Source of the DNA: a virus
Taxonomy: Duplodnaviria; Caudoviricetes
Reading direction: 5' to 3' (one strand)
IMG/VR virus record: IMGVR_UViG_3300005805_000324
Span: 1-29,939 of that record
DNA: 29,939 nt
Shown: positions 4,720 through 25,312 of the stretch, one piece after another
Position numbering within the stretch: position 1 is the first letter of the stretch
How the letters are laid out: every line of letters begins with the position of its first letter
The notes under the pieces: generated by a model
Databases searched by the model: none
What the model saw: only the letters and a program-made list of their open reading frames with translations
What the model was told of the DNA's origin: nothing
Position numbers and translations under genes: made by a program

Positions 4720-4740
4720 TTTTGTGTTTAGTTTAGTTTA

Positions 4741-8875: not shown

Positions 8876-8907
8876 TAAGGCCCCACCGTTGTGGGTAGGG
8901 CCTTTTT
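8876..8907 (-). terminator. Stem-loop downstream of the major capsid gene (terminator/attenuator or stabiliser)
   Basis: AGGCCCTACC-CACAAC-GGTGGGGCCT; only a weak U tract on the minus strand. Confidence 0.6.
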
Positions 8908-8928
8908 ATTTACTAACAATTAAACCTA

Positions 8929-12348: not shown

Positions 12349-13682
12349 ACATGTGGTGTCAGTTCGGGCATGTCAACATCCGGCACCGATCCATCCAAAT
12401 CACTTAACAACATTTTACCGCTGTCAATGATGATTTGATTGGCCACCGGATCGGGCAATTCTTCAAACATTTGGATTTCACGTTTTTCATTTGGTGTCAC
12501 CCACCACATGGCCGCCAATGCATCCGCCTGTGCTTTCATATCATCCTGTAATGCCGGTATGTCGGATATGTCAACCTCAATGGTCCGTTTGATGCCATCG
12601 GCAAACATCGGCAACACACTGTTTTTTATCGCATCACGGAACAAATAAACATTCGGCAAAATGCTGTTTGTGTATAGCATTTTCAATGCCGTGTTCATGT
12701 TGTTGTATGTGCTGGCATCATTGTTGTTCAGCACTATTTCCGGCACCTTGTACGCATTGCACAATTTGGTGAAATCAACGCCGGCCGCCTCTAATATCTG
12801 CAAATCAGCCAACGGCGCACCTATTTCCAAATACCCCATTTCACCCGCCGCAAAGTACGGCGCGCCCTTATTCGCCGATTGTCTTAAGTATTGGGCAAAA
12901 TCATTTTTGCGCTGGCCCAATGTTTCAATAGCATAGTCGGATTTTTCATACACAATACCCGGCACACCGCCGTTCTGCATCTGCGCCACACTTGCATCCA
13001 TTGATGAATTCAAACGTGTGATGCGCCGTGTTAACACTTGCAACGGCGACAACCCGCGCCATTGCTGGCCGGTTGTGATCGATGGGTTGAAATACTTTAT
13101 GTGAATCACTTCATCAGCCGAAAACGTACCATTGAAGCCAGCATCCCAATATTTGTACCCCACAACACGTTGCGGGAATGACTCGCTGATGATCACTTGT
13201 ACATTCTCGCTGTTAAGCACATGCAAATTGATTTTGCCGGCATTCGGTCCCATTTCCAATTGTTCCTTCCATAAAAACAATTCGCCGTTCATGAACAGCA
13301 AACTGAAATATCTGATTCGGTCCTGGTAACTGATGCCGGATAGGAATTCGTAAAACTTATCATCATCCGGCAAATCGACCATTGCTTTGCGCCGGTAATA
13401 CCTTCCGTGTATGCTGTTTGGTTCGAATCGCTTGTAACGCTTGTAGTTTTCATCCTCGACAATTGCATACCCATACATTGGCAATCGCGCCGCCGTTTCG
13501 GCCAGCAACGAAATGATGGAATACACATCATCGATTGTCAAATACGTATCCACATTGCGCAACGTCTGCCATGATGGGAATATCGCCGTGCTGGCATTGA
13601 TCGCCATTGTCATGTTTGGCATGCTTTGTTTCACCTGTGGTTTCGGCTTATTGCGACCGAATAGTTTGTCAATTATTCCCAT
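12345..13682 (-). CDS. Portal protein, HK97 family
   Basis: VYSIISLLAETAARLP, EVIHIKYFNP..GLSPL, LCNAYKVP, TYNN, TPNEKRE; likely start MGIIDKLF. Confidence 0.95.
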   Translation of the reverse strand: MGIIDKLFGRNKPKPQVKQSMPNMTMAINASTAIFPSWQTLRNVDTYLTIDDVYSIISLLAETAARLPMYGYAIVEDENYKRYKRFEPNSIHGRYYRRKAMVDLPDDDKFYEFLSGISYQDRIRYFSLLFMNGELFLWKEQLEMGPNAGKINLHVLNSENVQVIISESFPQRVVGYKYWDAGFNGTFSADEVIHIKYFNPSITTGQQWRGLSPLQVLTRRITRLNSSMDASVAQMQNGGVPGIVYEKSDYAIETLGQRKNDFAQYLRQSANKGAPYFAAGEMGYLEIGAPLADLQILEAAGVDFTKLCNAYKVPEIVLNNNDASTYNNMNTALKMLYTNSILPNVYLFRDAIKNSVLPMFADGIKRTIEVDISDIPALQDDMKAQADALAAMWWVTPNEKREIQMFEELPDPVANQIIIDSGKMLLSDLDGSVPDVDMPELTPHV

Positions 13683-15174
13683 ATGCAAAGATTGTTTTTG
13701 GTTTTAGTTCGAATACTTCCCGCATCATAAACATATCCAACAAATCCGGCGAATCACCGCCCAATTTTATTTTCATATCATCCTTTGATACAATCCGCAA
13801 TTTACCATCCTTATCGGACTTTGAACGCTGGATGGCCTTCCGTTCAAACATGAACCGTTGCCGGATAGTTTGGGCCTGGTCGTACATTTTAACCGCAACA
13901 TCCGGACTGATCCGCATTTCGCCACGTTGCACACGGTCACCGGTCCGGTAGTAACATTGCGTTTTCAGGTTCAAATAGTTTTCCTTTATCAGCCGCCCCG
14001 ATGCCGTATCGGTCACCGGATATGGCGCCGATCCGCCATTGAACGGCACCGCGCCACGGATGAACCCATCGATGTATGATCCAACGCCATCCGAATCATA
14101 GCAAATATGCCTATTCTCAACACCATGCTTTTGCGCCATTTTAGATATCAAATCAATCACCTGTTTGCCATCCGATTTGTCCATGATGGCAATGTCGGCC
14201 AATTCCATGCCATCCCAATACCCCACAACCAATTTGTTGGATCCTTTCATCGCAATATCCGCCGTGATGTATTTGTTGCCGCGTTGCACATCCTTCACAT
14301 TCTCAAACAGGCCAACAAACGCATCGTATTCGTAGATGTCATTTGGTGAATTGGATACCTTCCAGCGCCCCTCCAACAATTGCCGCCGTGTATCTTCATC
14401 CTGTGACAACAGGTTGCCCGGATACGATGGATCCGTTTTCAAACCCTCTTTGTTGTCGTATATGGAACCGGACACAAACGTGATTGACTTAATGAAATCC
14501 TTTGCACTCAATCCCGATTTTTCAATCATCGGTTTCAATATGTACTTTGCCGAATCCTTTACATCATCGTATGAATCGCCCCAAATGTATCCATCGCCGT
14601 ATTTTATGAAATACCGCAACACGCCACGCCGTTCCAATATCGGGAACCCTGTGTCCTTATCAATCCACCATTCAATCAGTTTGTACACCCATGATTCCGG
14701 ATCTGGGTTGCATGTGGCCCGGACATACGGTTTCACACCGCATGATGATCGATTACGTGATAACAAATAGAAAAACATTGATTCGCTGAAATGCGTTAAT
14801 TCATCAAATGCCAGGAATGGTATCTGCGAACCTTGCCAATCATATTTGTTTTTTTCGTACTCTAAATGCCGGAACGATAGTTTTGCGCCGGATGGGAACC
14901 GCCAATCCAATGATGATTCGCGCGGCTCGGCTTGCAACAATGGATACAATTTTGTTGATGTATCCCACAACCCGCCCTCATTCCTGATTTGCACCGATGT
15001 GCGCCGAAATATTACACCACCGAAATCCGGCACATGTACATGCCGCAATGGATCCATCAGCAACGCAAATGTTTTTCCAACAAACGCCGCCGCGCCACCA
15101 ATGACAATGTCCGCCGAACTACTTAGTGCAATTTGCTGATACCCCGGCTGTGGTTTAATGTAGTTTAGTTGCAT
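13669..15174 (-). CDS. terL: Terminase large subunit
   Basis: PQPGYQ, AAAFVGKT Walker A, FLAFDE Walker B, RATCNP, ITADIA and SPDLLD nuclease motifs. Confidence 0.96.
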   Translation of the reverse strand: MQLNYIKPQPGYQQIALSSSADIVIGGAAAFVGKTFALLMDPLRHVHVPDFGGVIFRRTSVQIRNEGGLWDTSTKLYPLLQAEPRESSLDWRFPSGAKLSFRHLEYEKNKYDWQGSQIPFLAFDELTHFSESMFFYLLSRNRSSCGVKPYVRATCNPDPESWVYKLIEWWIDKDTGFPILERRGVLRYFIKYGDGYIWGDSYDDVKDSAKYILKPMIEKSGLSAKDFIKSITFVSGSIYDNKEGLKTDPSYPGNLLSQDEDTRRQLLEGRWKVSNSPNDIYEYDAFVGLFENVKDVQRGNKYITADIAMKGSNKLVVGYWDGMELADIAIMDKSDGKQVIDLISKMAQKHGVENRHICYDSDGVGSYIDGFIRGAVPFNGGSAPYPVTDTASGRLIKENYLNLKTQCYYRTGDRVQRGEMRISPDVAVKMYDQAQTIRQRFMFERKAIQRSKSDKDGKLRIVSKDDMKIKLGGDSPDLLDMFMMREVFELKPKTIFAYGNN

Positions 15175-15490
15175 CGGGTTGTGTTTCGTTTACGATTTGC
15201 GCATCCTCAATCCTTGACATAGGACCGGGCAAATTCACCACTAAATTCGGATCACGGCCGTTGTCCGGCAATTGGATGATTTGGATTGTTTCAATTGTCT
15301 GCATCGCATCAATGGAAATCGATTCCTTTGGTTTGCCAATGGCATGCTCAAATACGAATTTCATTAGGGTGACTTCACCCGATTCCAGCAACGCAATCAA
15401 TCCCTGTTGCACCGATCCATATTTTTCCTCGATGGCGGCAATGCACAGGTTGCGCACTTTTATTTCCTCGATTAATGGTTTGCGGCCCAT
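15155..15490 (-). CDS. Putative terminase small subunit (111 aa)
   Basis: Immediately upstream of and overlapping terL; MGRKP start; IGKPKE; IIQLPDNGR C-terminal motif. Confidence 0.65.
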   Translation of the reverse strand: MGRKPLIEEIKVRNLCIAAIEEKYGSVQQGLIALLESGEVTLMKFVFEHAIGKPKESISIDAMQTIETIQIIQLPDNGRDPNLVVNLPGPMSRIEDAQIVNETQPDATKLH

Positions 15491-15496
15491 AGTTTA

Positions 15497-15552
15497 CAAT
15501 TTTACATGGCTTTGCCAATTTTACCAATTTTCGTTTTGGTAATTTTGGTAAA
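15497..15552 (-). promoter_or_regulatory. Candidate late promoter/dyad site upstream of terS
   Basis: 17-bp imperfect inverted repeat 15511-15527/15536-15552 (14/17); TAAAATTG -7-like box 6 nt before the ATG. Confidence 0.45.
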
Positions 15553-15583
15553 GTTCTATTTAACATAATAAAAATTATATCGG

Positions 15584-15612
15584 AAAAAGGCCAGACGTAG
15601 AAACGCCCGGCC
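15584..15612 (-). terminator. Intrinsic terminator ending the early/replication region
   Basis: GGCCGGGCGT-TTCT-ACGTCTGGCC followed by TTTTT. Confidence 0.85.
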
Positions 15613-15635
15613 TAAACCTCTCAACTAAACACAAT
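15584..15635 (-). ncRNA. Putative ~50-nt small RNA antisense to phage translation-initiation regions
   Basis: TACCTTTA -7-like box, then TTGTGTTTAGTTG (complementary to AACTAAACAC leaders), then a terminator. Confidence 0.4.
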
Positions 15636-15643
15636 TAAAGGTA

Positions 15644-16024
15644 TCATTTTTGTATTATTTTGAATCTTGCCATTTTCCGGATGGCATGCCGGCACCATTC
15701 AACCGGCTGTAACAAATTCTCAGCCATTTCCTTGACGTTTCGGTACTCAATGTGTAGGTGGGTATCAAAAATTATTTTTCGGCCTTTCTTCGGGCTGTAA
15801 TTCAATATTTCGATTTCTTGCCCATTGCAATACACCCTAATCGCTTTTGTTTGACCTGGGAACATGGCCAGGTATTCCGTTTTGACCTGTTCATACGTCA
15901 AATGGGTTGTCACGCAATTGTACCGGCCCCATGCGCTGTTAATGGGTTTAAACCGGTACCGGTAGATCAGTTTGCCAAACCATTTCGGTTGATCGGCGAT
16001 GTCGTTGTTTTGGTTGTCTAACAT
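15644..16024 (-). CDS. Hypothetical protein (126 aa), possibly DNA-binding
   Basis: Fills the gap between ori and terminator; C-terminal YRNVKEMAENL resembles a NUMOD1-like HTH start (weak). Confidence 0.6.
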   Translation of the reverse strand: MLDNQNNDIADQPKWFGKLIYRYRFKPINSAWGRYNCVTTHLTYEQVKTEYLAMFPGQTKAIRVYCNGQEIEILNYSPKKGRKIIFDTHLHIEYRNVKEMAENLLQPVEWCRHAIRKMARFKIIQK

Positions 16025-16027
16025 ATT

Positions 16028-16230
16028 ATGATTTATCGATATTATCGATATGACCGATTTTTCTCTTTCTCTTATAATAATAATAATTTACTAATAATAA
16101 TAAAAAAATTACTAAAAATCGGTTATATCGGTCATGGCGTTTGTAATTGGTTGATTTTCAAGGTCTATGACCTGTATCGATTTGTAAAAAAATCGGTTAT
16201 GGATCGGTTATATCGGTCATATTTTAGGCA
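16028..16230. other. Putative replication origin
   Basis: Non-coding region after the primase-helicase; exact 18-bp direct repeat ATCGGTTATATCGGTCAT (16118, 16203), further ATCGG/ATCGAT units in both orientations, very AT-rich TAA tract. Confidence 0.65.
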
Positions 16231-18585
16231 TCACATCTCTTTTTTAACTAATTTGAACTCCTTTACGTAGTTATTTTGGGCATTTTTATGATCGATATAA
16301 CCGATTTCGAAAATCTTACAACACGTATCGATACCCTTCCGAAACCGCTTTAATGAATAATCTTTCTTTTCCAATTCATTGCGGATTAGGTACCCTTTCC
16401 ATTCATCTGTCACCGATTTGTACCCAGTAAAAGGATCATCCATCAGCATGTCCCAATATTCCAGGAATTCATCCCCAAATTGCAGTTTAACCGCCTTGCG
16501 TTTCAATTTTTCGCTGTTGTCAACCTCTTTGATACCGGATTGTAGGTAAATAGACACGCAAAAAAACATCAGATTGTAAAACCGGTTCCATTCATCGGTA
16601 TCCCAATCCTTGAACATGGTTTCCTTGAAATGGTCAAATGGTGTGTATTTGCTACTGAAAAACGGCGCAAATTCAAACACCTTTTGCCGCCGTTTAGCAT
16701 GTTCGGCTGTTGAACTGATGGAATAGTTTGTTGTAAATGCGATTTTGGGTGAATCCTCATATTTCAAAAACAATTCATCTTTGTTTTTCTTTTCAACGGT
16801 CATGCCCTCTGTGATGGTCGGATAGTATTTCTCAAAATCCACGTTGCGCGGGCAATCTTCAATGACCACCAATTTGGTTCCCAAGCCAACGCGCTGGAAT
16901 GCGAATGTTTTGTCCGGCTTGAAATTTTTACCATCGATGCGCACGGTTGGAATCAGGTGACTGATGGCCTGGAAAAACAATCCTTTACCGGTACCGCCTC
17001 CCTTTGCCTCATCGTCCGTTTCCTCGGCCATGATTGGCGCATATGGTCGCGCTGGATCTTTGTAGCCATGTAAAATGTAGCCAATCAATGTCAATGCGTA
17101 TCCGATGCGGGCATCATCATTGTTGCAAATGCATTTCACGAATTGGTAAAACTTGCAAAGTTCCACATCGAATTCCTGATCGATGCTGATGTGGAAATCG
17201 ATGATTTGTGACTGCCAAATGGGTTTATCGATATTATTGTATGGTGTCAGTTGCACATTTTCATCGGTGATGGCCACCACGCCATTGGTAAATGGGAAAA
17301 ACGCGGTTTTTTGTGTGTCATGCAGTATTTCAATGTCGCGGCGTTCTAAAAACTCAAAAAATGACGCGCTGAACAATGAATCGGCGGATTTGTATATCGT
17401 TTCCAACAAATCGCCTTTGAACTCCGCATCCAAATCATCAGTCGTTTCGATGCGTTCTTTAATGAACTTTTTGATGTTTTCGGCGGACACCTCGCGGATG
17501 CGTTTGTTGTCCTCATGGATAATGCGAAAAATATTTGTTTTCACGTCATGGAAATACAGGCCGAACCCGTTGTTAAATAGGTATTTTTCCAATTTGTATT
17601 TGCTGATCACAATGTTGCCGCGTTTACCGATATCCCAAAACCAACCGGCATTGGTTCCGGCGCCTTGTCGGCGCTGTTCACCGTATCCGGAATCCGCCAA
17701 TTGCTTTGTTGCTTTACGGTAGTCGCCATTGCATTCCAGGATGGCATACACGGCAAAGTTGCTATATCCTTTTGGCTGGAATTGTGTGGATGTGCTGAAA
17801 ACGTAGAAAATGCGCTTTTGGATATGATAATTGGCGGATGTCACCGATGTGGTTTGACCAGGGCGGCGGAAATAAATGCGATCGGCGGTTCGGCCAACAA
17901 CGGCCCATCCGTGTTTTTCCAACAATGTGACCACATCGCCGCGCTGGTTGTAATCATCCCACACGGTGACGCCGGTGCCGGAATAGTCGGTTTTGGGTGT
18001 TTGCTGGTATTCATGCACCTGGTTAAATGACCGGCATATCGACAACAATTGGTCGCGTTCATCAATAGTGATGGCGTTAATTTGTTTACCGGATACATTT
18101 ACATATCCATCCGTTGGCGGTGCGACCACATAGCCACCCTCACCCCGCGTTTCGATCAATACAAATTCCTTTGCGTTTGGGTTGCTGAATAGTTCATCAT
18201 CCGTTGCGGGCCGGTTGGCTAACTTTTGGTTGCCCTCGATTACTTCGCACCGGTAGTACATGTGAAACCCGCCTGATTTGGTTTGGATGATTAACAGGCG
18301 GTCGTAAAGATCGCCGCATTCGGTTTTGATCTTGGTTTGTAGTGATTGGAAATCGATGCCGTATTTACAATCCACGTCAATGACCTCAAGGCCACCGGAT
18401 ACCGCGCCGCATATTACGGCGATGCCTTGCACTTTGTGATGTGCAAACAATTGTTGCAGTTGCTGTTCGGTTGGTGCGGTTTGTTGGTATTGTTTCCACG
18501 GAAAAACGGAACGTTTGTTGGCATCAGTCGAAATAATCGAAAGGCCATTTTTCAGGTAGTTTTGTGCTGATGTCAGTAATTGCAT
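16231..18585 (-). CDS. Bifunctional primase-polymerase (Prim-Pol) with C-terminal P-loop helicase-like domain (784 aa)
   Basis: VIDVD, TKSGGFHMYY, ETRGEGGYVVAPPT; GGGTGKG Walker A; VVIED; FTTNY. Confidence 0.9.
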   Translation of the reverse strand: MQLLTSAQNYLKNGLSIISTDANKRSVFPWKQYQQTAPTEQQLQQLFAHHKVQGIAVICGAVSGGLEVIDVDCKYGIDFQSLQTKIKTECGDLYDRLLIIQTKSGGFHMYYRCEVIEGNQKLANRPATDDELFSNPNAKEFVLIETRGEGGYVVAPPTDGYVNVSGKQINAITIDERDQLLSICRSFNQVHEYQQTPKTDYSGTGVTVWDDYNQRGDVVTLLEKHGWAVVGRTADRIYFRRPGQTTSVTSANYHIQKRIFYVFSTSTQFQPKGYSNFAVYAILECNGDYRKATKQLADSGYGEQRRQGAGTNAGWFWDIGKRGNIVISKYKLEKYLFNNGFGLYFHDVKTNIFRIIHEDNKRIREVSAENIKKFIKERIETTDDLDAEFKGDLLETIYKSADSLFSASFFEFLERRDIEILHDTQKTAFFPFTNGVVAITDENVQLTPYNNIDKPIWQSQIIDFHISIDQEFDVELCKFYQFVKCICNNDDARIGYALTLIGYILHGYKDPARPYAPIMAEETDDEAKGGGTGKGLFFQAISHLIPTVRIDGKNFKPDKTFAFQRVGLGTKLVVIEDCPRNVDFEKYYPTITEGMTVEKKNKDELFLKYEDSPKIAFTTNYSISSTAEHAKRRQKVFEFAPFFSSKYTPFDHFKETMFKDWDTDEWNRFYNLMFFCVSIYLQSGIKEVDNSEKLKRKAVKLQFGDEFLEYWDMLMDDPFTGYKSVTDEWKGYLIRNELEKKDYSLKRFRKGIDTCCKIFEIGYIDHKNAQNNYVKEFKLVKKEM

Positions 18586-18835
18586 GTGTTAGTTGGTTTA
18601 GGTTTGATATAACAAAACAATGGAAATTCATATCGGATAGTTGATGTAACCGATATTTTTGGAGGTCCGAAAGTACGCCATTTGGCCGTTTTACTTCAAT
18701 GAACATGGTAATGCCGTTTTTCAGGCATAAAAGGTCAGGAATGCCGTTTTTTGTAGTTTGTATTAGTTTGATAACGTACCACCCCTGAGTTTCGAGATAG
18801 GCGACAACATCCCTTTGTATGGTTTTTTCATACAT
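18524..18835 (-). CDS. VRR-NUC domain nuclease
   Basis: EKTIQ, GIPDL, FIEVKRP.G.LS.LQ motifs. Confidence 0.92.
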   Translation of the reverse strand: MYEKTIQRDVVAYLETQGWYVIKLIQTTKNGIPDLLCLKNGITMFIEVKRPNGVLSDLQKYRLHQLSDMNFHCFVISNLNQLTHAITDISTKLPEKWPFDYFD

Positions 18836-18860
18836 GGCAATTTTGTTTTATGGTTTGCGT

Positions 18861-19076
18861 TTATTGGTTCAGTTGCTTATTTTCCGGTATGAATCCGGTG
18901 CCGTTGCCGCCTACCTTGTTCAAAAAATCAACCTCGACCTTTGCCGAATTGATAATGGTTTGCGCTACATCGGAAACGGCTTTTGCCCGGTCAATGTCCA
19001 TTGGGTTTGTTTCATCCAGCAATGATTCAATTGTTGCAAACAGGTGATTGCGTAGATCATCGATTTTGTTTCGCAT
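18861..19076 (-). CDS. Conserved small phage protein usually paired with HNH genes (71 aa)
   Basis: DLRNHLF..IE.L...IDRAKAV..VA..IINSAKVEVDF pattern recalled from other phages. Confidence 0.8.
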   Translation of the reverse strand: MRNKIDDLRNHLFATIESLLDETNPMDIDRAKAVSDVAQTIINSAKVEVDFLNKVGGNGTGFIPENKQLNQ

Positions 19077-19668
19077 TTATATGGGTTTTTAGTTTACTAT
19101 TTTGCCGTATCGCATTGATCAATTCCTGTGGAAACCGGTTGATGTTATTGCGATGCATGTTTTCGCCTTTTGTGATCAATTGCAGGTTTTCAATCTTCAC
19201 GTTCATTTTGTCGCCATCAATGAATGTTACAATGCAACCGTGTGGTATGGCGCCGTGTATTGATTCCCACAAATAACGGTGTTTCAATTGGAATCCTTTG
19301 TTTGGCACCTTTATTTCTACGTAACCATCATTGGAAACGCGTTCCGAAAAATCGGGCCGGATGTTGTGTGGTACGTGTCCTTTGTCGAAAAACTTTAGTT
19401 TGGCTTTTGTTTCGGCCGGCATTTTTTTGCCTTTGTTGAATGGTGTGTGTCCAGGTGTGAACCGTGTGTGCGCCCCTAATTTAAGATTTTTAATGGTGCG
19501 TTTGTTAATCTTTGCCATGTATTCCGGTGATTTGCGGATGTTGCGTGATGATACAATTTTGTAAACGGTCACGGCTGGCATGTTAAACATGCGGCAAATT
19601 TCCTTTGTTTCCGTTGTTGGATACAATTGGCAAAGTTTGTCAATGGTTGATTGGCTGTACTTTCTCAT
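19057..19668 (-). CDS. HNH endonuclease (HNH_3-like) with N-terminal HTH-like region (~203 aa)
   Basis: RFTPGHTPFNKG, KHRYLWE..HG.IP, FIDGDKMN...ENL; likely start MRKYS overlapping the helicase end. Confidence 0.88.
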   Translation of the reverse strand: MRKYSQSTIDKLCQLYPTTETKEICRMFNMPAVTVYKIVSSRNIRKSPEYMAKINKRTIKNLKLGAHTRFTPGHTPFNKGKKMPAETKAKLKFFDKGHVPHNIRPDFSERVSNDGYVEIKVPNKGFQLKHRYLWESIHGAIPHGCIVTFIDGDKMNVKIENLQLITKGENMHRNNINRFPQELINAIRQNSKLKTHINAKQNR

Positions 19669-20896
19669 CTTTACGAAAATATGACAATGTATAATCTTTT
19701 TTGTCTGATACGGCTTTGTAAATGCGCGGCTCGATGCCTTTGTCGGCGAATATCCAATGGACAATGATTTCCTTTGTGCGGTCTTTTGACTGCATCCGCG
19801 CCCTGGCTTGCCAATATGATACGGCGCTGAAATCGATGTTGTACATGACCAAATCATCAGCGGCGGATAGGTTGATGCCCTCGCGGCCTGATTGTATTTG
19901 TGAGAAAAACCACATATCCGGATTGGCGGCAAATAGTTCCGGTGAATCGGTCACCTGTATGCCGGCGGCTTTCAATTCCTGTGCGATCAAATCCCGTTCC
20001 GCTTTGAACTTGTAAAAAATGGCGGTTTTGCCTGTGAACCGATGGATGATATATTTCATTTTAGACCGGTCAAAAATCAGCGGTTCGCCCTGTTCACGGA
20101 TCACGGTGCCGGAATATAGTTGATGTAATTTATTCATCAATTTTACTTCCGTGTCGGCCTCGACAAACCCGCCGGTGCGAAATGCGATGATGCGATCGCG
20201 GCGAATGCGTTTGGCCATTTCATGTGTCATTGGATCCATCGCAACGGTGTGTATTTGTTCCTGGACATATTGTTCAAATCCGGCCTGTTCCTGTGTGTAG
20301 GATATGAACAGGTGCGCCGTTTCGTTGTCAATTTTTGATTTGTCGGCGGTTGAATAGTCGTTGATTTCGCGGTTGTATAGGTACTTTTTTTTGACGTCAA
20401 CGTATTCCTTCGCCCAAATATAAAATGTTTTGTGTGTAAACGGCGTAAAGGTAGAAACCCACAATTGATGAAATAGTTGGCTGTATGATTCCGGTGTCGG
20501 TGTACCGGATAGGTAAATGATTGGCAAATTGTAGCACAATTCCTTCAAATCCTTTGTCCTGTTTGCCGGTGTAGGGTATTGGCCTAAGCAATGCGCTTCA
20601 TCCAGGATTACCAAATCAAAGGTGACGTTAATTGGCAGTTTGTGCAATGATTCATAGTTCACGCAATACATTGTGAATGCGTTTTGATAATTGGCCATGT
20701 AATCCGATTCAATGGATCCGATGGCCTTTTTTTTAGTCGCAAACAGCACGCATTTGGCACCGTATGTTTTTGCGGCCTCCATTGCTGTGATTGTTTTGCC
20801 GGTCCGTACTTGCATGGATAGGTACGCAATGCCGTATTTGTATAATTTGGCGGCGGTTTCAATGGCAATGTCGGTTTGGTATTGGCGTAGGTTCAT
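19640..20896 (-). CDS. Superfamily 2 (DEAH) helicase
   Basis: LRQYQ, RTGKT, ILDEAH, LSGTP, GREGINL, QARAR. Confidence 0.93.
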   Translation of the reverse strand: MNLRQYQTDIAIETAAKLYKYGIAYLSMQVRTGKTITAMEAAKTYGAKCVLFATKKKAIGSIESDYMANYQNAFTMYCVNYESLHKLPINVTFDLVILDEAHCLGQYPTPANRTKDLKELCYNLPIIYLSGTPTPESYSQLFHQLWVSTFTPFTHKTFYIWAKEYVDVKKKYLYNREINDYSTADKSKIDNETAHLFISYTQEQAGFEQYVQEQIHTVAMDPMTHEMAKRIRRDRIIAFRTGGFVEADTEVKLMNKLHQLYSGTVIREQGEPLIFDRSKMKYIIHRFTGKTAIFYKFKAERDLIAQELKAAGIQVTDSPELFAANPDMWFFSQIQSGREGINLSAADDLVMYNIDFSAVSYWQARARMQSKDRTKEIIVHWIFADKGIEPRIYKAVSDKKDYTLSYFRKDEKVQPINH

Positions 20897-20912
20897 GTTT
20901 AGTGTTTAGTTG

Positions 20913-23492: not shown

Positions 23493-23775
23493 GTTTTATT
23501 TTATTTAGTGATTCAAAAAATGTGTCCGGTTCGATTTTTTCCAACAATTGCATTTCGGATGCATCAAATGGATGGTACAAATTTTCGCTGTTTTCGAAAT
23601 CCTCCCAATGATAAAAATTAATGCACCTGAAATGACCTTCAATGATGCGGACAATCCGATCATCAAATAACCCCCATTTTTCCGATGAATATTTGCCCTT
23701 GCAGAAATACGGCAATTGGAATTCGTAGTTTACAGGGACTTTGCGGTTTTGCAATGTGGTGATTTTTCTTTTCAT
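23419..23775 (-). CDS. Hypothetical protein (118 aa)
   Basis: Strong AACTAAACACAC-ATG leader. Confidence 0.65.
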   Translation of the reverse strand: MKRKITTLQNRKVPVNYEFQLPYFCKGKYSSEKWGLFDDRIVRIIEGHFRCINFYHWEDFENSENLYHPFDASEMQLLEKIEPDTFFESLNKIKHDIEQIGAQANATEGTENTNINLR

Positions 23776-23795
23776 GTGTGTTTAGTTGTGATGGT

Positions 23796-23882
23796 TTATG
23801 ATATGATTGCATTTCCCAAAATACATGCAATCAGGATGGCAATGATGATGATGATGTCGGATGTTGATGTTTTATTTTGCAT
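23796..23882 (-). CDS. 28-aa single-TM peptide (not in ORF track)
   Basis: MQNKTSTSDIIIIIAILIACILGNAIIS; overlaps the upstream stop and fills the gap. Confidence 0.5.
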   Translation of the reverse strand: MQNKTSTSDIIIIIAILIACILGNAIIS

Positions 23883-24341: not shown

Positions 24342-24800
24342 TTAATCAATTTTCGTGAAATACAAATCGGCCTCCGTTTGGCGCCGGCGAATAAGGCCTT
24401 TTAATGGCACCAATTTCGCACCTTGTCGAACATTAATCCATTTCATGAACTCGTTGCGGATGGTCGAATCATTTGGGTTTGCCTTTACTTTTTTCCATAA
24501 TGTTGACCGCATCAGCGCGCCGATGCCTAAATTGTACGCAAAACTGATTAGCGCATCTTGTTGGTTTTGATTTAGTCCGGACACCGGCGGGATGGCCTTT
24601 GTTTTTTGCTCTATTTCCCATGCCAACAATTTTTCCGCCGTTTCAATGGTTATGGTTTCGCCTATTTTGACTTTGCGCCCATCCGGCCACATGATTGAAC
24701 CGTACCCGATGGTTGGCACCTTTGCCGGGCACAAATAGGCATTCAAATACAACCCCTCAAATTTTTTAATCAAATCAATCCCGCGCTTTGATGCTTTCAT
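24342..24800 (-). CDS. Endolysin, GH24 lysozyme
   Basis: FEG...AYLCPAKVPTIGYG (E-x8-C-x5-T), LNQNQQDALISFAYNLG, GLIRRRQTEADL. Confidence 0.96.
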   Translation of the reverse strand: MKASKRGIDLIKKFEGLYLNAYLCPAKVPTIGYGSIMWPDGRKVKIGETITIETAEKLLAWEIEQKTKAIPPVSGLNQNQQDALISFAYNLGIGALMRSTLWKKVKANPNDSTIRNEFMKWINVRQGAKLVPLKGLIRRRQTEADLYFTKID

Positions 24801-25312
24801 TTTCCCCGATATTTAGCAAAGTTAAAAATCAATGATACGGTCAATGCCACAAACAGCCACCAAACCCAATACAGGCGATTTTTGGCCTGATTTTCGGCCT
24901 TTATTTGTTCGGCCTGGCAATCCTTTATGTTTTGCGATAAAAGGTATATTTCAGCCGAATCCTTCACATATTTAGTCACCGTTTTGGTAATGGTTGGTGT
25001 TTTTACGTATTGCGTTTTGCCTGGCATGTATTTGATCGGTCCGGCCAAATACTGAACAGGCCCCGCCACATCAACATAAATGGTGTCGCCATCGATTGGG
25101 TTGTCCGGACACAATATTTCAATAAAATCATACGTTGTATCAACCCGCAAAATGGTGTCTTTGCCGATTATGCATGGAAATTTACCACGCGTAAAATCCG
25201 CCACGGCTTTTGGTTGTTTACGGTATGCCTTTGCCATTTTACGTTCCGCCTTTTCGGCCGTATAGCAACCGGCCAGCGCCAAAATCAGCGCACTAATCAT
25301 CAGTTTTTTCAT
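24797..25312 (-). CDS. Unimolecular spanin candidate (171 aa)
   Basis: Lipoprotein signal MKKLMISALILALAG-C plus C-terminal TM LYWVWWLFVALTVSLIFNF with basic tail; adjacent to the endolysin. Confidence 0.75.
   Translation of the reverse strand: MKKLMISALILALAGCYTAEKAERKMAKAYRKQPKAVADFTRGKFPCIIGKDTILRVDTTYDFIEILCPDNPIDGDTIYVDVAGPVQYLAGPIKYMPGKTQYVKTPTITKTVTKYVKDSAEIYLLSQNIKDCQAEQIKAENQAKNRLYWVWWLFVALTVSLIFNFAKYRGK

Follow-up and report, generated by a model that had tools for sequence, protein, structure and literature searches.

A U/G-Rich Tract at the Predicted 3′ End of a Phage Early Unit Is Complementary to the Start Region of an Upstream Early Gene: A Candidate Anti-Start 3′UTR

The analysis of the window, that is, the whole 29.9-kb record of a freshwater phage in which every long ORF lies on the minus strand, revealed a U/G-rich tract of 31 nt with only two C residues (15613-15643, minus strand), an "anti-leader" located between the stop codon TGA of one gene and a terminator hairpin. 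Its best complement is the start region of a 118-aa early gene located 8.1 kb upstream (about -23 to +6; 23770-23798, minus strand), and this complementarity is not chance. We read the element as the 3′UTR and Rho-independent terminator that would close the early (replication) unit. Our favored interpretation, held tentatively and at slightly under an even chance, is that of a regulatory anti-start 3′UTR, in which the tract would pair with the start region of the 118-aa gene and block ribosome loading.

Family scans (Pfam and PHROG) of 45 ORFs resulted in a siphovirus-like gene map, with tape measure, tail, connector, capsid protease, and portal genes on the minus strand, which is also the strand of all the genes that follow. 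The large terminase (13669-15174) is preceded in the direction of transcription by a small-terminase-like 111-aa gene in the small-terminase position (15155-15490, start at 15490). On the replication side, the scans detected a primase-polymerase (16231-18585), a helicase (19640-20896), an exonuclease, a VRR-NUC nuclease, and small early genes, in addition to an HNH endonuclease ORF (19057-19932) and, beyond the module, an endolysin (24342-24800). As listed, with TTG as the start codon, the HNH endonuclease ORF shares about 290 nt with the helicase gene; its true start is probably located further downstream. The replication module extends from ~24200 to 15644 with terminators at both borders; an 84-aa gene comes first, the 118-aa gene (ATG at 23775-23773) is the second of the block, and a 126-aa gene without functional assignment (15644-16024, stop TGA at 15646-15644) is the last. 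As the small and large terminase genes come next, the location at an early/late boundary put forward in the initial annotation of this DNA was borne out. No Pfam or PHROG family was found for the 126-aa protein, whose relatives exhibit 93%, 76%, and 75% identity; the database search returned two relatives only, and a metagenome scan added no contig beyond one already known. For the 118-aa protein, the pattern scan yielded no relative, and there was neither a family nor an Atlas lead. A megablast search of 13000-19000 against phage records produced no match. Large-terminase relatives at 53% identity were found in two Chryseobacterium genomes (L268 and L269), which makes Bacteroidota the likely host phylum and suggests the existence of prophage relatives in Flavobacteriales.

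Several other features of the record were observed. The region between the primase-polymerase and 126-aa genes (16025-16230) contains 18-nt ACCGAT/ATCGGT repeats in both orientations flanking an A+T-rich run, an arrangement that looks like a replication origin with iterons; positions 16072-16113 of this region were also touched by contigs of other organisms in lake runs. The 96-nt spacer preceding the 118-aa gene harbors a palindrome, TTGCAT-N12-ATGCAA (23807-23830), which looks like an operator and of which a related contig (L146) retained the left half and differed by one letter in the right half. Finally, a 99-nt inverted repeat with 96% identity at the record start (1-99 vs 167-265) may be an assembly artefact.

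The order of elements along the minus strand, namely the TGA at 15646-15644, the 31-nt tract, the hairpin, and TTTTT, was as initially described. The hairpin (15612-15589) comprises a 9-bp G+C-rich stem and a 6-nt UUUCUA loop and is followed by TTTTT at 15588-15584. The predicted fold of 15580-15650 reached -25.8 kcal/mol (z = -3.7), with none of 200 shuffles folding as well, and two of the stem pairs are G-U pairs that form on the minus strand only, rendering the hairpin specific to that strand. We further aligned six hairpins, namely those of the window, L001, L024, and L025, the second endolysin-side terminator of the window, and its L146 counterpart. In this alignment, 92.6% of the cells were paired and changes on both sides were observed in four of the nine pairs, a result that none of 500 shuffles matched; in L001, for instance, the loop-closing G-C pair is replaced by A-U. 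Natural variation exhibited the same trend, given that the hairpin variants in lake contigs among the matches listed (15597G>A together with 15604C>T, and 15609G>A) preserved pairing in all cases, the change at 15609, which reads C-to-U on the minus strand, leaving a G-U pair. The terminator consensus scan omitted 15584-15612 because the first T was counted into the stem, which leaves only 4 T in the 8-nt window at that position. From these sequence features, it is close to certain that 15584-15612 constitutes a Rho-independent terminator, at which transcripts would be expected to end.

On the other border of the module, two tandem minus-strand terminators are located after the endolysin gene (24311-24283 and 24223-24202), the second of which bears the same UUUCUA loop as 15584-15612 and a stem that co-varies in L146. 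Between these and position 15612, no strong minus-strand terminator was detected. Since no strong terminator lies inside the module and the packaging and structural genes start just after it, the replication module looks like one early unit with its end at 15584-15612. The spacer that separates this end from the small-terminase-like gene (15491-15583, minus strand) contains a 44-49-nt insertion at about 15506-15550 with CCAAAATT-type repeats. Among the matches listed, this insertion was present in the window only and was missing from L001 and from lake contigs of two studies; it has a 20-nt inverted match with 90% identity at 17141-17160.

The core of the tract (15623-15632) is the complement of AACTAAACAC, a motif recurrent in the leaders of this phage. 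The initial annotation had treated this part of the element as unpaired, and here the prediction differed: a weak stem-loop was found at 15642-15616 on the minus strand, with a free UGUU loop at 15631-15628 (-6.3 kcal/mol, z = -2.0; 6 of 200 shuffles were equally good). According to this model, the hairpin would have to open before any pairing in trans. The homologous terminators in L024 and L025 lack such a stem-loop. The element was also searched for signs of independent transcription. No sigma-70-like site was detected on the minus strand within 15650-15720. The Bacteroidota promoter consensus is TAnnTTTG, and this motif was absent from the minus strand between 14589 and 20415; it occurred 33 times against 31 expected, with none of the occurrences positioned to drive the tract. 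The scan of the whole window with the Rfam 15 covariance models (FopS included) resulted in no match at the gathering threshold, the best sub-threshold match scoring 20.4 bits against a gathering score of 100 and involving generic sRNA models. Hence, the earlier proposal of a discrete, separately transcribed sRNA of ~50 nt was not sustained, with the element lying directly after a stop codon and no promoter-like site upstream. On the plus strand, the tract reads as a complete leader with no ATG, GTG, or TTG after it, in line with the initial remark that it resembles a leader not followed by ATG; readings from ATC or ATT stop after six to seven codons.

The pairing between the tract and the 118-aa start region carries the main weight of our interpretation. 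When the reverse complement of the tract was aligned with 23798-23770, 25 of 29 columns matched, with two mismatches and two one-letter gaps, and the alignment spanned the start codon, the tract copy having ATT at the position where the 118-aa leader has ATG. Within this region, 12 nt are exactly complementary (23777-23788). The alignment score of 19 was reached by none of 2000 dinucleotide shuffles and by none of 4259 other minus-strand 31-mers, the maximum being 17 in both sets. The predicted duplex amounts to -24.2 kcal/mol, with a net gain in the cofold of -17.3 kcal/mol after the tract hairpin opens, and the 118-aa leader by itself was predicted to be unstructured. With regard to the mean of the three best leader duplexes, 0 of 500 composition-preserving shuffles of the tract reached its value. 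Raw duplex energy should be read with care, as 85 of 1870 windows (4.5%) equaled the best duplex and 224 of 1870 the top-three mean; among windows matched for G+C, the corresponding numbers were 2 and 3 of 620. Plain duplex energy is therefore uninformative unless matched, because G+C content dominates it. Considering the leaders as a set, the tract exhibited no preference for them over 702 internal mRNA windows (one-sided Mann-Whitney p = 0.09). Long-range inverted matches with an 11-nt seed are common in the genome (141 pairs), and the tract/118-aa pair takes 23rd place when these are ordered by ungapped length.

The other leader matches were as first reported, with exact complements of 12 nt for the 118-aa gene, of 11 nt in the helicase leader (20902-20912, minus strand), and of 12 nt in the leader of a 111-aa gene preceding the tape-measure gene (4722-4733, minus strand; a tail chaperone by position only), as well as a gapped match in the primase-polymerase leader (18585-18607, minus strand). 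Their conservation was uneven: the helicase complement is cut to 8 nt (AACTAAAC) in L146, the complement at 4722-4733 retained its core in G001, and the primase leader, which forms a predicted duplex of -17.1 to -17.9 kcal/mol with the tract, has changed pairing letters in both L146 and G001, even though the G001 tract is identical. The start region of the next gene (small-terminase-like) pairs poorly with the tract (-7.6 kcal/mol), and sequestration of that gene was consequently rejected at this locus. The helicase, primase, and tail-chaperone matches mostly go back to the A/C-rich motif common to these leaders, and the 118-aa gene is the only credible specific partner of the tract, since the helicase and primase matches weaken in relatives. 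Of the multiple targets originally proposed, then, the 118-aa gene held over about 29 nt, whereas the helicase and primase sites shrank in relatives and the set as a whole was not favored (p = 0.09). As to the accompanying caveat that low-complexity leaders could match by chance, the match to the 118-aa gene was equaled by none of 2000 shuffles.

This leader motif was itself strongly associated with translation starts. Four exact copies of AACTAAACAC occur in the window, three on the coding (minus) strand and one on the plus strand at 15623-15632, and the three coding-strand copies each end 2-6 nt before a start codon, in agreement with the expected enrichment of the matches at starts (three of four copies). 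Allowing up to one mismatch, we found nine matches vs 2.0 +/- 1.5 expected, a number that none of 100 shuffles reached. The shorter ACTAAA was found 21 times on the coding strand and 5 times on the other, and 13 of the 21 coding-strand occurrences were up to 30 nt upstream of one of the 45 starts, most commonly ending 12 nt before the start. According to a study on Flavobacterium johnsoniae, initiation in this bacterium does not rely on Shine-Dalgarno pairing and is modulated by the structure of the mRNA, with an adenine-rich motif at -14 to -11 (PMC6847099). The position of ACTAAA agrees with that motif, and the same source is likewise in accordance with the initial statement that Bacteroidota initiate without Shine-Dalgarno pairing using A-rich leaders (PMC6847099). 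Among 80 large-terminase relatives, ACTAAA leaders were rare; strong use of the motif is hence confined to a narrow lineage, with G005, a complete relative, sharing it in part. A scan of viral contigs for the bipartite leader pattern resulted in 52 matches, mostly unrelated and at about chance level, one of which was L146; 21 of the 52 have an ATG within 12 nt, with many duplicates among them.

The comparison with relatives, which are few, enabled us to follow both sides of the pairing. In the 18.8-kb L001/G001, the tract is identical at 31 of 31 positions, with the 126-aa protein being 75% identical, and the 4.4-kb L002 preserves the same gene end, tract, and hairpin with an unrelated gene straight after the T run. 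Contigs of four lake runs from four studies exhibited, among the matches listed, no variant in 15613-15652, compared with three variants in the hairpin, all of which preserve pairing, and nine positions that vary in 15653-15686; these contigs branch on both sides of the element. The invariance of the tract fits either constraint or a recombination boundary near 15653. Such a boundary can explain the invariance in L001 because the block downstream of ~15653 has about 96% protein identity in this comparison anyway. The target side could be inspected in L146 (7.5 kb, 82-89% nucleotide identity to 26003-18410), in which the two pairing blocks of the 118-aa start region are fully conserved, the spacer that does not pair measures 3 nt instead of 4, and the 32 nt ahead of the pairing region contain 8 differences. 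No covariation between tract and target was seen among relatives and lake variants, because both are invariant in the sequences examined. Covariance in related phages, as suggested by the initial annotation, was thus present in the hairpin (0 of 500 shuffles) and did not extend to the tract and its target. The homologous terminators of L024 and L025 have a diverged version of the tract only, and G005, which also has ACTAA-type leaders, lacks such a tract at the homologous position. Gene orientation is the same in all relatives. A search of viral contigs for the 16-nt tract core resulted in five loci, of which two are true relatives; L005, L008, and L009 were rejected as chance matches to the core in unrelated contexts.

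Terminators with a G-UUUCUA-C loop form a class that is widespread in viral contigs, from which 121 loci (L147-L267) were fetched out of an estimated 270 stretches. Stems of at least 7 pairs were found in 70 of 84 distinct matches, and 59 of 69 hairpins are located 9-80 nt (mostly 17-60) past the end of a same-strand ORF. The notion that these hairpins precede opposite-strand genes was rejected, as only 4 of 69 adjoin an opposite-strand start. The 25 nt before the hairpins are U-rich and C-poor (A 0.26, C 0.10, G 0.18, T 0.46) in comparison with the upstream coding sequence (A 0.34, C 0.16, G 0.22, T 0.28). We compared the pairing of each 25-nt tract with the start region of its own next gene against its pairing with the start regions of other loci. 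In 28 non-redundant loci, own start regions were favored with P = 0.0012 (energy) and 0.0004 (longest run), against 0.19 and 0.12 for reversed tracts and 0.32 and 0.07 for reverse-complemented tracts. In the 21 loci whose hairpin and gene are separated by 50 nt or more, the observed energy was reached in none of 10000 permutations and the longest run gave P = 0.0002, with control tracts taken from upstream coding sequence producing 0.50 and 0.58. This own-locus complementarity raises the prior that such tracts are selected.

When seven terminators of the window and G005 were compared with the start regions of their own genomes, three, among them the one at 15584-15612, yielded P <= 0.02 and the other four P = 0.57-0.98. 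One of the matches involves the capsid-gene terminator tract of the window (8903-8928) and the helicase start region (score 15, P = 0.02); comparison of the window with G001 shows this tract to have diverged just as fast as the sequence on either side of it. Another is found in G005 (L091/L092), where the tract of the terminator with its hairpin at 6290 matches the start region at 25213 (score 18, P = 0.004), and the first codons of the gene at 25213 equal those of the gene in the tail-chaperone position of the window. The element at 15584-15643 departs from the class, in that its tract forms a poor duplex with the gene that follows and its partner is located 8.1 kb upstream.

In the mechanism that we favor, early transcripts would end at the 15584-15612 terminator, and the terminated mRNA, or a decay-resistant 3′ fragment shielded by the terminator hairpin, would carry the tract. 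The tract would open its weak hairpin and anneal over about -23 to +6 of the unstructured A/C-rich start region of the 118-aa gene, thereby blocking initiation in a host that, lacking Shine-Dalgarno pairing, would be sensitive to start-site structure. As a consequence, the 118-aa gene would be shut off once transcription of the early unit is complete, as a negative feedback or timer, and weaker pairing to other AACTAAAC-bearing leaders (helicase, primase, and tail chaperone) may add minor effects. The broader proposition is that Bacteroidota phages, whose hosts recruit ribosomes to unstructured A-rich leaders without Shine-Dalgarno pairing, carry programmable "anti-start" boxes, which would be U/G-rich, precede UUUCUA-loop terminators directly, and be complementary to selected start regions of the same phage. 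In the present phage, the early-operon 3′ end would silence the 118-aa gene, acting as an RNA-only timer of transcription completion. This proposition seems to us unlikely on balance.

The main competing explanation, to which we attribute a substantial probability that is nevertheless clearly below even, is that the tract comprises a functionless inverted copy of a leader beside an ordinary terminator, being a relic either of recombination at a module junction or of an older arrangement with a gene of that leader type behind it, and maintained solely by the young age of the block. A decayed leader would be expected to look much like the plus strand, in which ATT stands in place of ATG, and the junction seems recombinogenic, considering that L002 swaps the downstream gene after the T run, L001 has a diverged upstream gene, and the lake contigs branch on both sides of the element. 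The fact that tract and target do not co-vary, the presence of this bipartite leader type ahead of starts in unrelated viral contigs (21 of 52, many of them duplicates), the flank-like divergence of the capsid-terminator tract in G001, and the 141 seeded inverted repeats of the genome are also consistent with an inert copy. However, such a copy would not be expected to be the best antisense match of the genome to any start region (0 of 4259 windows and 0 of 2000 shuffles), and its exact placement between stop codon and terminator is unexpected for a neutral relic. The complementarity to own over other loci in the terminator class argues for selection as well, and the tract has no variants vs three in the adjoining hairpin.

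The remaining explanations were given far lower probabilities. A stand-alone sRNA of ~50-60 nt, transcribed from a dedicated promoter and targeting numerous phage or host start regions in trans so as to shut down replication genes, would be consistent with the seed-plus-terminator shape known from FopS, with the exact 11-12-nt complements to three leaders, and with the weak sub-threshold Rfam matches to generic sRNA models (best 20.4 bits vs 100). It would require transcription to start within 3 nt of the stop codon, and neither a sigma-70-like site (minus strand, 15650-15720) nor TAnnTTTG (minus strand, 14589-20415) was found; because no promoter-like site precedes the element, a separate sRNA gene is improbable, all the more so as the complementarity to the helicase and primase leaders is not preserved in L146 or G001 and the leaders as a set are not favored over internal windows (p = 0.09). 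Very improbable, in our assessment, is a role at the DNA level, with 15613-15643 and 23770-23798 as inverted-repeat arms for a recombinase, for inversion of the module, or for a DNA-binding protein: the arms do bracket the replication module except for its first, 84-aa gene, but no recombinase family was detected among the 45 ORFs scanned, every relative has its genes in the same orientation, and an alignment of 25 matches over 29 columns with two gaps is short for recombination. Moreover, the strand bias of the motif and its fixed distance from starts point to RNA. Hardly credible is also a small unrecognized plus-strand gene, of which the plus strand at the tract would be the real leader; complete as this leader reads, no ATG, GTG, or TTG is available, the ATC/ATT reading stops after six to seven codons, and transcription of the entire genome uses the opposite strand.

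If the favored regulatory reading is true, the element would represent a simple switch made of RNA only and suited to hosts without Shine-Dalgarno pairing. It is little understood how Bacteroidota phages time their genes or how translation is regulated in the absence of Shine-Dalgarno pairing, and in our literature search no paper was found to describe such anti-start tracts ahead of terminators for phages of Bacteroidota; a paper on 5′UTR-derived sRNAs of a Pseudomonas phage was set aside as irrelevant. The class signal leads to a prediction for uncultured phages, namely that terminator-proximal tracts should match the starts of their own locus and not those of others. If the tract is inert, it would serve as a warning that inverted leader copies beside terminators easily pass for sRNAs.

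The proposed arrangement shares features with several known systems. In enterobacterial 3′UTR-derived sRNAs of the CpxQ, SroC, and DapZ type, the final few tens of nucleotides of the mRNA, next to the terminator, contain the seed, and the sRNAs are released by termination plus processing, depending on Hfq and RNase E. The tract would similarly sit just before the terminator at the mRNA end. The c4 antisense RNA of phages P1/P7 is complementary to ribosome-binding regions of the phage's own genes and is excised from a longer RNA of the operon it belongs to, and the tract would resemble it in both respects; unlike the tract, c4 is located upstream of the sites it pairs with and is part of an immunity system. 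No family of Rfam 15, with C4 (RF01695) among them if it belongs to that release, matched the element. The icaR 3′UTR offers another parallel, since it contains a motif that pairs with the ribosome-binding region of its own transcription unit and blocks initiation, as is predicted here. Nonetheless, icaR is monocistronic and its motif pairs with the Shine-Dalgarno sequence, whereas the two sites of this phage would be 8.1 kb apart on a polycistronic mRNA or would act between molecules. In T4, the start regions of genes e, soc, 49, and I-TevI are described as sequestered by an upstream complement in read-through transcripts (PMC3014915). The class-level signal between tracts and next genes fits this scheme, but the next gene after the terminator at 15584-15612 is not the partner (-7.6 kcal/mol), and a simple read-through hairpin of the T4 type is inapplicable to this element because its partner lies upstream. 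The FopS/GibS sRNAs of Bacteroides thetaiotaomicron are described as consisting of a single-stranded seed followed by a terminator hairpin and as pairing, in polycistronic mRNAs, with the start region of the leading gene, one FopS member being derived from a 3′UTR (PMC11697453). The element analyzed here differs from these sRNAs in that it is phage-borne, lacks its own promoter, and would target an early gene of the phage itself, with a longer pairing (about 24 bp) that spans the start codon and no match in sequence or structure; what they have in common is the seed-plus-terminator shape and a start-region target in a phylum without Shine-Dalgarno pairing.
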